This document shows positions 42,645 through 64,000 of a DNA stretch of 64,000 bases, piece after piece. Origin of the DNA: a virus (Duplodnaviria; Caudoviricetes); IMG/VR virus record IMGVR_UViG_3300042314_000891, positions 1-64,000 of that record. The stretch is one strand, 5' to 3'. The translations under genes and the position numbers were made by a program. The notes beneath the pieces are model-generated. The model saw only the letters and a list, made by a program, of their open reading frames with translations. It made no database searches and was not told the DNA's origin. Numbering within the stretch: the stretch's first letter is position 1; each line of letters starts with the position of its first letter.

Positions 42645-43409
42645 ATGAAAGTAGAAGGTAAGGAGTATTGTAATACATCCAAACTCATAGTTAGACCTGT
42701 GAACAAATCCGTTGCAAAGGATATTATTGTAAATAACCATTATAGTGGTATATGGACAAAGGTATCCTATGCATTGGGTTTGTTTTATCAATCAGAGGAT
42801 GAGCATCAATTTTTTAGTGGAGTAAATGAAAAGCTAATAGGTGTAGCTTGTTATGGTGACCCTATTGGTAGAAATACCGGAGCATCTATTTCCGATATGT
42901 TGGATAGAGATACAGTATTAGAATTGACTCGTTTATTTGTATTTGATGGATATGGTTCTAATATAGAGAGTTGGTTTGTAGCACAAACATTTCAATGGTT
43001 ACGAGATAATACACCAAAGATTAGAGCACTAATTTCATATTCAGACCCAAAGGTTGGACACAAAGGAACTATTTACCAAGCTACTAATTGGATTTATCAA
43101 GGTAACAAAATTAGGTGGAGTGATAGTTGGAGTTTTAAGTGGAGTGAAATAGATGAGTGGCAACATGGTAGAACTATATTTCCATATTATGGTACTAATG
43201 ACCCAAAGAAAATACAAACAATGGTAACATCGCCATTTTGGATTAAACGAGAACCGCAAAAACATCGTTATGTGTATTTCCTAACTAAAGATAAAAAGGT
43301 TAGAAAGCAATTAATTAAATCCTTAAAGCATGAAACTTTCCCATATCCAAAAGAAAGTGAAGAGCATGTTGATGAAATATATAAATTAGAACCAATTGAA
43401 AGAAGCTAA
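42645..43409 (+). CDS. Mom-family (GNAT-fold) adenine-modification enzyme 1
   Basis: NNHYS, LIGVACYG, LELTRL, LISYSDPKVGHKGTIYQATNWIYQG, KHRYVY. Confidence 0.8.
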   Translation: MKVEGKEYCNTSKLIVRPVNKSVAKDIIVNNHYSGIWTKVSYALGLFYQSEDEHQFFSGVNEKLIGVACYGDPIGRNTGASISDMLDRDTVLELTRLFVFDGYGSNIESWFVAQTFQWLRDNTPKIRALISYSDPKVGHKGTIYQATNWIYQGNKIRWSDSWSFKWSEIDEWQHGRTIFPYYGTNDPKKIQTMVTSPFWIKREPQKHRYVYFLTKDKKVRKQLIKSLKHETFPYPKESEEHVDEIYKLEPIERS

Positions 43410-44199
43410 CAAAAATTATTGTGATACAACCAAAGTATCCGTTAGGGAGATTAGTACATCTATTGCAAAAGAAATTATTGTAAAGAAACACTATACTCAC
43501 GCTTGGACTGCTTGTAGATATTCGTTGGGTATATTCTATAAAACGGATACTGAAAATGCTTTGGGTGATGCAGAAAAACTGATAGGTTGTTTAATCTATG
43601 GGTTTCCAGTTGGAGCTAAAGCACCTACATCTGTATGCGATGGTTTGACTAAAGATAATATTTTAGAATTGACTCGTTTATATTGCGATGATGGGTATGG
43701 TTCTAACATTGAGAGTTTTGCTTTAGGGCAATCTTTTAAGTGGTTGAAGGAAAATGATAAGGCAATCAAAGTTTTGCTCTCATACGCTGATAATGGACAG
43801 GAACATTTGGGTGGAATATACCAAGCAACCAATTGGATTTATCAAGGATTAAATACTGATATTGCACTAATGCCAAATTATGGTATCTCAATCCAAAAAG
43901 ACCCATACAAATGGATACATAGTAGAAGTGTATTTACTAAATGGGGAAGTGGTAATTTGGAACATCTTCGTAGAGAAATTGGTAAAGATGGATATACTGA
44001 ATTTTGGAGAAGAGAAGAACCACCAAAACATAGATACATTCAGTTGATACCACAAGATAAACGTGAGAAGAAAGATTTGATGAAACGATTAAAACATCCA
44101 ATCAGAGAGTATCCAAAAAATGCAAGAGAGTATAATAAGGGAATTGAACACCATACTACAATAGAACCAAGTACGGAAATAGCTAAAAACTTTTGGTAA
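43396..44199 (+). CDS. Mom-family (GNAT-fold) adenine-modification enzyme 2
   Basis: KKHYT, LIGCLIYG, LELTRL, LLSYADNGQEHLGGIYQATNWIYQG, KHRY. Confidence 0.8.
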   Translation: MKEANKNYCDTTKVSVREISTSIAKEIIVKKHYTHAWTACRYSLGIFYKTDTENALGDAEKLIGCLIYGFPVGAKAPTSVCDGLTKDNILELTRLYCDDGYGSNIESFALGQSFKWLKENDKAIKVLLSYADNGQEHLGGIYQATNWIYQGLNTDIALMPNYGISIQKDPYKWIHSRSVFTKWGSGNLEHLRREIGKDGYTEFWRREEPPKHRYIQLIPQDKREKKDLMKRLKHPIREYPKNAREYNKGIEHHTTIEPSTEIAKNFW

Positions 44200-50880: not shown

Positions 50881-51078
50881 TATAGAAAATGAGGTTAGTA
50901 TGCCGGTGTGGAGAAGTCCGGTGTTAAGAGGACCCGAGAGGTAGAAATACCATCCCACTACTCATCCAACAAAAAAAAAGTAAAAATAATTTTGATATAT
51001 GGAAAAAGTTTCGTATATTTGTATTATAGATTTGAGACCAATAGGTGATGAAAGATACTCGGTTAATCAAATTAAAAA

Positions 51079-51095: not shown

Positions 51096-51931
51096 GCACA
51101 TAGTAGACTAGTTCTACATAGTGTACATCGGCCGCCTATGGTCGTGAAATAAACTACGAAAGTAGGATAAAGTGAATCATTTGGTTTAAGTGATTTGCGG
51201 CTTCGAAAGGAGCTTGAGTAGGCAAGTGGAATATCATTTCACCTTTAGTATTGAGGGTAACACTGTAAAGAGGGTGGTGAAATGACTGGGCTAAAGTAGA
51301 TAGTTCAGTTGAGGTGGGAACACCAATAAGAATAATCCATAGAGTTATTGCGAGAAACTGAAACTTAATCCCTTTCAACAATTGCGTGATTCAATATTAG
51401 AGTTTGCTTAAAACCGAAAGGTAAGATAAAGTACGAGTGGTGTCGTTATTATCCTTACTCTTCACCTACCAAGGTAGGAGTTATGAAGCAAACTTAAAGT
51501 ATGGTGTTAGGGATAACACATCGAGTAGTTCAGTATTCTGTTGTTCAAAAGATAACGGAGCAGGTTGGCGAACCACTACTTGAAACCATCTACAAACCAA
51601 ACTCAATTTGCCGGTTAGTGCAAACTATAAACAAAAAGAGCAAAAGTGTTCGTCAGTTGCAAACGAAAGGTGCGTACATAGTAGGGAGTTGTTCCTTGCC
51701 ACGATACCTCCGCAAGAGGTCTGTGATTCTTTCGAAAAACTTCTAACACCGCAAGTGTGAATCTGTTCGGCAGAGTAGAAGAAGCGGAGTAAAGAGAGAG
51801 TAGTTTGTAACTTTATGAGTGGTTGGCTTAACTAACCCGCATTGAATCGGTACTATCCAAAAGATAGTGGAAAAGTTGGGAAACAATAATCCAACGAAAG
51901 CTGGTTCTTTTACGTGAGTATTCTCATCCGT
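51096..51931 (+). ncRNA. Large structured RNA, probably GOLLD (boundaries approximate)
   Basis: About 830 nt with raised GC and no credible ORF; many GNRA hairpins (CTAC-GAAA-GTAG, ACC-GAAA-GGT, CCTCC-GCAA-GAGG, CACC-GCAA-GTG); adjacent to tRNAs; resembles my recollection of the GOLLD 5' end. Confidence 0.7.
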
Positions 51932-51941
51932 AATAATATAA

Positions 51942-52015
51942 GCGAGATTGGTGTAATGGTAGCACATCGGCCGTCCAGGTCGGAGGAGGGGGTTCAATTC
52001 CTTTGTTTCGCTCCA
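51942..52015 (+). tRNA. Non-canonical tRNA-Gly(TCC) with G33
   Basis: GCG/CGC-U73-CCA Gly acceptor; loop CGTCCAG; T-stem GGGGG/CCTTT. Confidence 0.75.
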
Positions 52016-52018
52016 TAA

Positions 52019-52091
52019 GCGGAGAAAGTGTTCCGGTAGCATGTGTACATTCCTGTACAATGAGGTGGTTCGATTCCATCTCTCCGCTCCA
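52019..52091 (+). tRNA. Non-canonical tRNA-Gly-like with 6-nt anticodon loop
   Basis: GCGGAGA/TCTCCGC-U-CCA; TGTAC-ATTCCT-GTACA. Confidence 0.75.
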
Positions 52092-52176: not shown

Positions 52177-52320
52177 ATGAAAACTCTTAACCTACATACG
52201 ATAGCTTATCAACCGACATCAAATTTGATGTGGGCAGGCAATCGCGTGTGTGATTTTAGTTCGAAAGGAATTAAAAATCAGTTAGGGGCAACAATATTAA
52301 ACGATGTAGACTTGGGATAA
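52177..52320 (+). CDS. Putative attenuator leader peptide, 47 aa (not in ORF track)
   Basis: MKTLNLHTIAYQPTSNLMWAGNRVCDFSSKGIKNQLGATILNDVDLG*; A-rich Bacteroidota-type start context; contains a copy of the terminator 3' arm. Confidence 0.75.
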   Translation: MKTLNLHTIAYQPTSNLMWAGNRVCDFSSKGIKNQLGATILNDVDLG

Positions 52321-52347: not shown

Positions 52348-52379
52348 AACCCCTGACTCAAAAAGTTAGGGGTTTTTTT
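52348..52379 (+). terminator. Intrinsic (attenuator) terminator before the tRNA operon
   Basis: AACCCCTGACT-CAAAA-AGTTAGGGGTT followed by T run. Confidence 0.9.
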
Positions 52380-56388: not shown

Positions 56389-56463
56389 GCAGGTATAGCA
56401 CAGTGGTTAGTGCTCTGGTCTTCCAAACCGGAGACGTCAGTTCGAATCTGACTACCTGCTCCA
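56389..56463 (+). tRNA. tRNA-Gly(TCC), canonical
   Basis: CTGGT-CTTCCAA-ACCGG; U73-CCA. Confidence 0.93.
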
Positions 56464-58551: not shown

Positions 58552-58712
58552 TGTGATGTGGCGAAATTGGCAGACGCACCCTCCTGTCTCGGGGGCGGGG
58601 ATAAATAAATAAAGTAAGAATAATAAAGGGGTTGACCACCTAGCTTCCGGAAGCGCCAAAAATTGTTCTTTACCTAATTACCTTATGGATGGTTCGAATC
58701 CTCCCATTACAG
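58552..58712 (+). ncRNA. tRNA-like RNA, GTC anticodon, ~90-nt variable arm
   Basis: TGTGATG/CATTACA-G; Leu-type D arm GCGAAATTGGCAGACGC; CCCTC-CTGTCTC-GGGGG; T loop TTCGAAT. Confidence 0.7.
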
Positions 58713-63089: not shown

Positions 63090-64000
63090 ATGAAATTTTG
63101 GGATACCGAAGAACCAAAGGAGGTTTTTAATTACGATGAGATGAAACGTAAGTTCATTGAGAACTTGGATTATCTTAAAGAAATGTCCGTTGAAGAACAA
63201 ACACTATACAAAAAGTGGATGGAATGGAATGCGGACTTAAAGACAACGTTTCCTAAAAAATCATATTTAGGTCAATACTACGATGTGTTGTGGAGACCAA
63301 CTGATATATACAATAAGGAGCTAACTCTGAAAGAATTAGATGAGTTAGACCCTTATGTGGAAATTGTTGAAGATGACCCAAAGCAATCAACTCGATGGAC
63401 GGATATTCGTAGACTTATCCATACGATGGAGTTTTCAGCTAACCCAGGTCGTAATGTTAAGATTTACGCCAAAGATAGAACGAGTGGTAAGATATTAGGG
63501 CAGATTTGTTTAGGTTCTGATATTACATCTTTGGGAGTTAGAGATGCATATATCGGTTGGAGTAAAGATGATAAGTTTAAGAAGGGTAAATTGAATTGTA
63601 CTGCTATTGCAACTACCATCGTATCAACACAACCATTTGGTTACAATTTTTTGGGTGGTAAACTAATCGCAGCATTAGCAACCGCACCGGAGATACGGGA
63701 TTATTGGAAACGCAAGTATAGTAATCCATTAGTTGGTATAGGTACAACATCCCTGTATGGTATTCACTCACAATATAATGGTATCCCACATTTCAAAACA
63801 TTAGGCGAATCTAAAGGTAAAATTTCTACAAAGCCAGATGATTCGGTTTATGACCCTTGGCATCAATGGATTAAAGAAAATCGTTCAGAATGGTATAGTA
63901 AAAATATCACACAAGAACGTGAAAGGAATGGTGCTAGTATGGGTTATGAAAAGAATGGACCTGTAAGTGGTATTAAGCAAAAGATTATTCAATCAATCTA
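63090..64000 (+). CDS. DUF4338 / Druantia DruA-like protein, 3'-truncated (not in ORF track)
   Basis: NPGRNVK, GQICLGSD...RDAYIGW, QPFGYNFLGGKLIA, TTSLYG..SQYN. Confidence 0.8.
   Translation, partial: MKFWDTEEPKEVFNYDEMKRKFIENLDYLKEMSVEEQTLYKKWMEWNADLKTTFPKKSYLGQYYDVLWRPTDIYNKELTLKELDELDPYVEIVEDDPKQSTRWTDIRRLIHTMEFSANPGRNVKIYAKDRTSGKILGQICLGSDITSLGVRDAYIGWSKDDKFKKGKLNCTAIATTIVSTQPFGYNFLGGKLIAALATAPEIRDYWKRKYSNPLVGIGTTSLYGIHSQYNGIPHFKTLGESKGKISTKPDDSVYDPWHQWIKENRSEWYSKNITQERERNGASMGYEKNGPVSGIKQKIIQSI

Follow-up and report, generated by a model that had tools for sequence, protein, structure and literature searches.

Two adjacent transfer RNA (tRNA) genes of non-canonical form, found in the genome of an uncultured tailed phage, are probably dedicated glycyl donors for the DNA-modifying enzyme Mom, i.e. 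carriers predicted to be chargeable with glycine and blind to translation. They are situated on the plus strand at positions 51942–52015 (gene 1) and 52019–52091 (gene 2) of IMG/VR record IMGVR_UViG_3300042314_000891 (Duplodnaviria; Caudoviricetes). The stretch analysed, termed the window here, consists of positions 1 to 64,000 and is part of an 85.8-kb viral record estimated to be 39% complete. A total of 14 lake-water DNA runs contain nearly all of a 1.6-kb segment that carries the two genes and the adjacent GOLLD RNA; the source may be among these runs. ARAGORN finds 25 tRNA genes and one transfer-messenger RNA (tmRNA) in the window. Related sequences are cited below by record (G numbers) and by locus (L numbers).

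ARAGORN annotates gene 1 as tRNA-Gly(tcc) and gene 2 as "tRNA-??? (tc)". Both genes display G1-C72, C2-G71 and G3-C70 (the GCG/CGC acceptor top), U73, UCC in the anticodon loop and an encoded CCA. The anticodon loop of gene 1 is C-G-U-C-C-A-G, with G in place of U33 and a possible C32-G38 pair, and its T stem (GGGGG/CCTTT) has G-U at 49-65, 50-64 and 51-63. Gene 2 has a 6-nucleotide (nt) loop, AUUCCU, and a T stem (GGUGG/CCAUC) with G50-U64 and U51-A63. With energy folding, the anticodon loops shrink to 5 nt in gene 1 and 4 nt in gene 2. An ordinary decoding tRNA-Gly(UCC) is found separately at 56389–56463 on the plus strand (ARAGORN tcc; RF00005, 70.8 bits), with a 7-nt loop, U33, and T-stem pairs G49-C65, U50-A64 and C51-G63. 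The original prediction, made from the nt sequence of the window, had described both the odd pair (acceptor identity, U73, CCA, G33, three G-U pairs, 6-nt loop, U51-A63) and the separate normal gene at 56389; each detail is correct, and ARAGORN bears out the latter.

When decoding competence is taken as a 7-nt anticodon loop together with U33, both genes fail. Gene 1 scores 37.9 bits with the general tRNA model RF00005 (gathering cut-off 29), against 51.6–77.2 bits for 23 normal tRNAs of the window. Gene 2 shows no RF00005 match in Rfam; its sole match there is to tRNA-Sec, at 24.4 bits (E-value = 0.29, cut-off 47). G3-C70 is also an identity element for glycyl-tRNA synthetase (GlyRS). The bacterial GlyRS identity set, as given in the portion of PMC7826273 consulted, consists of G1-C72, C2-G71, U73, C35 and C36; it is present in both genes and is invariant across the 19 aligned copies described next.

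Copies were collected by a GOLLD motif scan of the viral collection (100 loci), by a scan for the anticodon-arm motif of gene 1 with G33 (13 loci) and by later searches. Arm-motif matches at L153, L157, L158 and L159 are in GC-rich coding DNA and were dismissed as chance. The resulting alignment, A2, contains 19 odd copies from 12 loci and at least 12 records. Cloverleaf pairing is found in 94.9% of its cells versus 78.8% in shuffles, and none of 500 shuffles reaches the observed value; the covariation score is likewise reached by 0 of 500. Sliding the 3′ partner by 1–3 columns lowers pairing to 41–55%. Changes on both sides are seen in 12 of the 21 pairs, including acceptor pairs 4–7 and all five pairs of the anticodon stem, and the acceptor stem of gene 2 shows compensating changes relative to its homologues. 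G1-C72, C2-G71, G3-C70 and U73 are present in 19/19 copies and UCC in every loop; the encoded CCA is often missing. A further 11 copies, outside the alignment, retain GCG/CGC and U73.

The anticodon loops of the odd copies are either 4, 5 or 6 nt long, or 7 nt long with G, C or U at position 33 and a possible C32-G38 pair. Two types of arm are seen. Type one has a 5-bp anticodon stem and the loop C-(G/C/U)-U-C-C-A-G, in which C32-G38 pairing is possible; type two has a longer stem and a 4- or 6-nt loop that contains UCC. Phages with two copies mostly carry one of each type, in either order, and the types recur in distant relatives. These patterns reflect selection for a tRNA shape that displays the GlyRS determinants without a decoding loop. 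A weak score, or none, on the general tRNA model and the loss of the second copy in one relative would suit decaying duplicate tRNA-Gly pseudogenes, an outcome that the original prediction itself had named. That reading can hardly be right: compensating changes in over half of the pairs, identity nucleotides that do not vary, and the same two arm types in distant relatives all speak against decay, the odd features are conserved with covariation, and on that ground the pseudogene reading was rejected.

In G004, G024, G047 and G073 the two odd tRNAs are separated by a conserved element of approximately 210 nt (L125:18099–18304; L156:8745–8957; L247, minus strand, just downstream of 1501; L360). 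Its ends look complementary. The copy in L156 gives no Rfam match at the gathering score, and the element may be an undescribed structured RNA.

The T stem differs as well. Of 29 odd copies, 19 have G-U at 50-64, versus 28 of 148 normal tRNAs from the same phages, and one has G-C at 51-63, versus 49 of 148; A-U is however frequent in the normal T stems of these AT-rich phages, which counts against the glycyl-donor reading and makes the contrast modest apart from the G-U excess. Two odd copies have U-U at both 50-64 and 51-63. The 51-63 pair is said to set affinity for EF-Tu.

The putative consumers of the charged tRNAs are two overlapping genes about 8 kb upstream of the odd pair, both on the plus strand. 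The original prediction had placed two Mom paralogues at 42645–44199, and PF25680 confirms them: paralogue 1 (254 aa, 42645–43409) matches with E-value = 1.3e-42 and 146.2 bits, paralogue 2 (267 aa, 43396–44199) with E-value = 4.4e-43 and 147.8 bits, against a cut-off of 27.1. Paralogue 1 also matches the Mu Mom structure 8bv8 (E-value = 3e-09). Six Mom sequences, which represent both paralogue types and include the two from the window, show no variation at the positions corresponding to Mu R111 and S124; the offset from the 8bv8 chain index to Mu numbering was inferred from the S124A construct. Identity between the two paralogues is 42%, and each is 75–81% identical to its own orthologues in other phages; thus the duplication is old and both copies have been kept. 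The nearest Mom from a cultured phage is that of a Polaribacter phage, at 42% identity. Neighbouring genes encode a ribonucleotide reductase, PhoH, thioredoxin, an AAA ATPase and an S-adenosylmethionine-lyase-like protein.

According to the parts of PMC13219725 consulted, Mu Mom moves glycine from Gly-tRNAGly onto N6 of adenine in double-stranded DNA, in agreement with the original prediction. R111 and S124 are indispensable to the enzyme, which accepts each of the three E. coli tRNAGly isoacceptors and rejects Gly-tRNAAla; the authors suspect that Mom recognizes the acceptor end (PMC13219725).

The closest view of a link between the odd tRNAs and Mom comes from two near relatives. Both G001 (120 kb) and G002 align collinearly to the window, with 80–98% identity on both sides of the Mom genes. 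In both, the Mom pair is replaced by methylase-like and pyridoxal-phosphate-enzyme-like genes (L374:1192–3202 in G001, L375:1188–5499 in G002), to which the G002 cassette adds asparagine-synthase-like and thymidylate-synthase-like genes. One DNA-hypermodification module seems to have been exchanged here for another. In both records a deletion of 194 nt takes out exactly the two odd tRNAs, while GOLLD (98% identical to that of the window in G001, 92% in G002), the short open reading frame downstream and the tRNA array remain; no tRNA-like element follows either GOLLD. The deletion junction is common to G001 and G002, thus this is one event. The co-loss agrees with the original prediction: close relatives without Mom are also without the odd tRNAs. 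Across 20 kb, only three indels distinguish G001 from the window. The third is an insert of about 0.8 kb between tmRNA and GOLLD (L124:16725–17527) that resembles the 2-oxoglutarate-Fe(II) oxygenase gene of the window (68% identity).

G001 keeps 23 tRNAs, which are the ordinary set of the window. The loss of both odd genes with retention of all 23 ordinary ones bears on another possible role, extra supply of tRNA-Gly for GGA/GGN codons, or frameshift or suppressor decoding. AT-rich phages do often encode tRNA-Gly(UCC), and the copies in relatives without GOLLD, described below, have normal 7-nt loops with U33. A supply role is nevertheless very improbable for the two genes of the window, where a normal tRNA-Gly(UCC) is already present; a loop that is 4–6 nt long, or that has G33 and is closed by C32-G38, is moreover not a decoding loop.

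Beyond these two relatives, records were compared with R1, a covariance model built from the 19 odd copies. Odd copies score 71–94 bits with R1, apart from two divergent ones at 55.8 and 57; gene 1 gives 89 bits and gene 2 gives 73.4 bits. Normal tRNA-Gly scores approximately 47–55 bits, except for one at 60.8, and the values for other tRNAs are lower. All seven Mom-bearing records that are at least 90% complete (G004, G005, G006, G007, G024, G047 and G078) carry an odd copy. In the Mom-less relatives with tRNA arrays (G001, G002, G014, G017, G018, G020 and G029–G033) no R1 match exceeds 52 bits. G014, which is 89% complete, has neither Mom nor an odd copy, and a tRNA-Met is found at the 3′ end of its GOLLD. 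A deeper Mom-less clade, G029–G036, has the AAA gene (about 50% identity), tmRNA, tRNA-Met, GOLLD and array, with nothing tRNA-like directly 3′ of GOLLD and only a normal tRNA-Gly. The co-occurrence test put forward with the original prediction is therefore positive, as sufficiently covered Mom records carry an odd tRNA and Mom-less relatives with arrays carry none.

The copy numbers of Mom genes and Gly-like tRNAs are equal in 13 of 17 records. Two of each are found in G000, G004–G007, G024, G066 and G067, three of each in G068 and G069, and one of each in G009, G078 and G070.

Some Mom-bearing records lack GOLLD, and the tRNA genes that these phages encode are all tRNA-Gly. In G054 (165 kb) the single tRNA of the record is a tRNA-Gly(UCC), and in G056 there are two tRNAs, both Gly. 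In G066 and G067 alike, a tandem pair of Gly-like genes is accompanied by two Mom genes. In G068 and G069 (140 kb) three tandem Gly-like genes are the only tRNAs, with three tandem Mom genes 6.6 kb off. The copies in these records have the same acceptor top, U73 and D arm as the odd family, yet their loops are 7 nt long with U33; two of them have U-U mismatches at 50-64 and 51-63. One of the three tandem genes of G069 (L353; G069:81817–82060) has the anticodon ACC, and one has U-U at 50-64 and 51-63. A history that would fit begins with Mom phages of this group carrying a tRNA-Gly of their own; in phages with a full tRNA set, including a normal tRNA-Gly, the Mom-linked copies would then have lost their decoding loops.

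The position of the two genes raises a different possibility. The conserved 3′ domain of GOLLD RNA is found at 51521–51930 on the plus strand (RF02032, 292.6 bits, model positions 1–416), and the match counts as full length and above the gathering score of 150 bits for the covariance model. Gene 1 starts 12 nt past its end. The two genes may thus be GOLLD accessories, either an RNase P site that makes the GOLLD 3′ end, or cargo or partner of a GOLLD nanocage, in which case the Gly ancestry would be incidental and Mom unrelated. The GOLLD pattern scan gave 100 loci, of which 42 show no nhmmer match to the window GOLLD. Among loci with at least 100 bits to the window GOLLD, a tRNA or tRNA-like sequence starts within approximately 20 nt of the 3′ end in 16 of 20; in L024 it starts 13 nt past the end, and in L074 the element is 34 nt from the GOLLD 3′ end. 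Of the loci that do give an nhmmer match, most belong to distant GOLLD types that lack an ARAGORN tRNA in the vicinity, a result that covers tRNAs detectable by ARAGORN. Occupants of the position are initiator-type tRNA-Met, tRNA-Thr, tRNA-Met with odd D arms, the Gly-like family, and tRNA-likes with A73 and 4–6-nt loops. GOLLD thus generally has a tRNA slot at its 3′ end, and RNase P cleavage at this slot plausibly sets that end.

In other GOLLD lineages as well an element is found 2–18 nt past the end (L008, L011, L013, L017, L020, L024, L054, L077, L091 and L092), and one of the loops contains CAU. The literature places GOLLD in tRNA arrays, sometimes with embedded tRNAs (10.1101/2024.12.08.627333; PMC12990946); in the passages of these two sources consulted the general 3′ slot does not seem to be described as such.

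The slot accounts for the siting of the two odd genes, and this siting is no sign that GOLLD needs them. Left unexplained by the slot are the frozen Gly identity, the loss together with Mom while GOLLD stays, and the persistence with Mom where GOLLD is absent. The adjacency to GOLLD, the filled slot in most close GOLLD loci, the tRNA-Met in the slot of Mom-less G014 and the published association with tRNA arrays are what an accessory role would lead one to expect. The role seems unlikely all the same, as G001 and G002 retain GOLLD without a trailing tRNA-like element, and odd or private Gly copies are found with no GOLLD nearby or in the record (L154, L160, G054, G056, G066–G069). Of these, L154 and L160 hold odd copies away from any GOLLD; the odd copy of G078 is approximately 670 nt ahead of the GOLLD 3′ domain. 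RNase P needs none of GCG/CGC, U73 and UCC, yet these are invariant, and an accessory role predicts neither joint loss with Mom nor equal copy numbers. The original prediction had drawn on the location of the genes upstream of an attenuator; the siting itself is correct, but the adjacency to GOLLD, which accounts for it, had not been weighed.

Several observations weigh against Mom-dedicated glycyl donors. Copy numbers are unequal in four of the 17 records (Mom/tRNA: G047 2/1, G050 2/1, G054 3/1, G056 3/2), and G047 is a complete genome in which the second tRNA copy is cleanly absent. A strict rule of one tRNA per Mom is therefore rejected, and the original proposal of two tRNAs for two paralogues has partial support, from the records with equal numbers and not from these four. 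The GOLLD-less copies have ordinary 7-nt loops and could simply serve translation. An odd tRNA is present with no Mom on the contig in G003, G008, G022, G023 and G028, all of which are fragments; in G003 and G008 the expected Mom site is past the contig end. Mom-bearing G044 (84% complete) and G045 (81%) carry no tRNA at all, and the Mom-bearing fragments G064, G080 and G083 carry other tRNAs, none of them Gly-like. A 4–6-nt loop could also misplace C35 and C36 so badly that GlyRS fails.

Mu, moreover, has no tRNA gene of its own and needs none. Among 331 cultured phage records that match Mom, the five examined with R1 (Melnitz-2, Polaribacter P12002L, S-SSM6a, PX29 and LP-Mix_6.2) lack any odd Gly-like tRNA, and a culturable test system was thus not found; the GOLLD and tRNA stretch of the window has no close relative in the cultured-phage collection. 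Thus Mom does not require a private tRNA, and the claim is limited to the present phage group. The records, too, come mostly from one broad group with many close relatives, which leaves a small number of independent events, namely a single nested co-loss (G001/G002), a single deeper clade without Mom (G029–G036) and the copy-number changes.

Two candidates from the cultured records were set aside. The "tRNA-OTHER" beside the Mom-like gene of S-SSM6a has a UAU-type loop and so is not Gly-like, and the R1 match in Melnitz-2 is a tRNA-Trp(cca). The latter, in Methylophilales phage Melnitz-2 (L382:1501–1574; record positions 68570–68643), is approximately 930 nt upstream of the Mom-like gene and inside an annotated hypothetical coding sequence; the feature table of the record shows no tRNA there. 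Its D arm is identical to that of one class of odd Gly-like tRNAs.

Particular toxins and nucleases target tRNA-Gly. Decoys or sponges that soak up such a host factor, e.g. a GNAT toxin acetylating Gly-tRNAGly or an anticodon nuclease, and so shield the real tRNA-Gly, would need just what is seen here, identity kept and decoding lost. Specificity for tRNAGly is also described as a theme among GNAT toxins in the part of PMC13219725 consulted. A decoy role would leave the tie to the presence and copy number of Mom, as well as the loss at the cassette swap, unexplained, and is regarded as quite improbable.

The surroundings of the two genes suggest how they might be expressed. The best promoter-like site upstream of GOLLD is at 50992–51019 on the plus strand, a consensus match only (10/12 matches in a consensus scan). 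A 47-codon open reading frame at 52177–52320 (plus strand, from the open reading frame list) is 3′ of the two odd genes, is conserved in relatives and is read as an attenuator leader; it is likewise found 3′ of GOLLD or of odd tRNAs in L004, L050, L075 and L051. A hairpin resembling an intrinsic terminator follows at 52348–52374 on the plus strand, ahead of the main tRNA array, and the terminator scan found no such site between the promoter-like site and 52348. A transcription unit is thus likely, in the predicted order promoter, GOLLD, odd tRNA 1, odd tRNA 2, leader and terminator, tRNA array.

Contigs from RNA libraries of four studies cover GOLLD over 51148–51907 at a depth of hundreds to thousands. 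Those from three studies start at 51148 or 51149, a weak hint of the GOLLD 5′ end, and the whole RNA probably starts near 51148. In the four libraries the two odd genes are uncovered, save by one low-depth contig at 52015–52101 in X16; standard RNA libraries capture tRNAs poorly and the data are contigs, so this coverage has no bearing on expression or processing of the two genes.

Other features were seen around this region. A phage tmRNA (50301–50687, 87.5 bits) is just upstream of GOLLD, and the order tmRNA-GOLLD-tRNA array is kept in many relatives, with tmRNA tag peptides that vary among lineages. Past the last tRNA block, the open reading frame at 58685–59260 matches the 2′-5′ RNA ligase / 2H phosphoesterase superfamily; its match to the anti-CBASS protein Acb1 is below cut-off. 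DruA-like genes (PF14236) are found at 63090–63998 of the window and at L248:1631–2824; the one in G054 is directly 3′ of the lone tRNA-Gly.

If the two genes are glycyl donors for Mom, they would be co-transcribed with the upstream GOLLD from one promoter, ahead of the attenuator that would gate the ordinary tRNA array, and would be excised by the normal tRNA-processing enzymes. Host GlyRS would charge them with glycine, and the charged tRNAs would donate the glycyl group to the two Mom enzymes, which would place glycine-derived carbamoylmethyl groups on adenine of the phage DNA. The short or G33 loops, together with T-stem pairs 50-64 and 51-63 that are weak (G-U or A-U) or mismatched, would keep the odd tRNAs off the ribosome and EF-Tu, and DNA modification would then neither drain nor compete with translation. 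A bolder version assigns to every Mom paralogue a glycyl carrier that is private to it and blind to translation. Enzyme and tRNA would then co-evolve as orthogonal units (1/1, 2/2, 3/3), each Mom would read the tRNA body beyond the acceptor end, and the arm type would mark the Mom and the DNA context served. This extension is speculative and rather doubtful.

Phage tRNAs with altered anticodon loops evade host anticodon nucleases. Such tRNAs also have non-standard loops, but they still decode, which 4–6-nt loops cannot do, and evasion predicts no link with Mom.

A closer likeness is found in the staphylococcal non-proteinogenic tRNAGly isoacceptors, which feed FmhB, FemA and FemB (PMC7826273, in the portion consulted, here and below). 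There too, extra tRNA-Gly genes retain the GlyRS determinants G1-C72, C2-G71, U73, C35 and C36. They are altered elsewhere such that interaction with EF-Tu and the ribosome is poor; partition away from EF-Tu was measured for the staphylococcal tRNAs (PMC7826273) and is predicted for the phage tRNAs. Their glycine is also passed on by a transferase into a product made without the ribosome (PMC7826273), and a counterpart of this transfer is proposed for the phage. The systems differ in that the staphylococcal consumer is a Fem transferase acting on peptidoglycan, whereas the phage genes are viral and their proposed consumer is a GNAT enzyme acting on DNA; and in that the anticodon loop is destroyed (4–6 nt or G33) in the phage genes and not in the staphylococcal ones. 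The phage sequences, from uncultured lake-water phages, are outside the staphylococcal lineage. On the best-supported placement, the odd tRNAs would be functional analogues of the staphylococcal non-proteinogenic tRNAGly and not members of that lineage.

With Mu Mom the present enzymes share the family PF25680, the conserved catalytic Arg and Ser, and the proposed donor Gly-tRNAGly (PMC13219725, main text). Mu, with a single mom gene and without a tRNA gene, scavenges any host isoacceptor, whereas these phages have 1–3 Mom paralogues and their own tRNA-Gly or Gly-like genes. As in the known GOLLD phages (10.1101/2024.12.08.627333; PMC12990946), GOLLD is directly beside tRNA genes. In the known cases these are ordinary tRNAs; here the flanking tRNAs appear to be non-decoding and their presence follows Mom, not GOLLD. 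In literature on momylation, on Mom/tRNAGly hypermodification and on phage tRNA anticodon loops, no link between phage tRNA-Gly genes and Mom was found. The passages of PMC13219725 consulted treat tRNA as a host resource, and "encoded tRNA" was not found in its main text.

The use of a charged tRNA by Mom has been shown only recently, and the tRNA has been seen as a host resource to be scavenged. If the present reading is true, these phages would bring ready-made tRNAs that are charged yet invisible to the ribosome. This would be the first viral case of a non-translational tRNA, and the first such tRNA tied to DNA modification. It would account for "broken" phage tRNAs that annotators discard as pseudogenes or as "tRNA-???", and would predict which uncultured phages have momylated DNA. 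The question of GOLLD is also sharpened, since this RNA has a conserved 3′ tRNA slot whose occupant varies with the other needs of the phage. And if each Mom does have a private carrier, these phages would possess a virus-encoded, tRNA-based cofactor system for DNA chemistry alongside translation.

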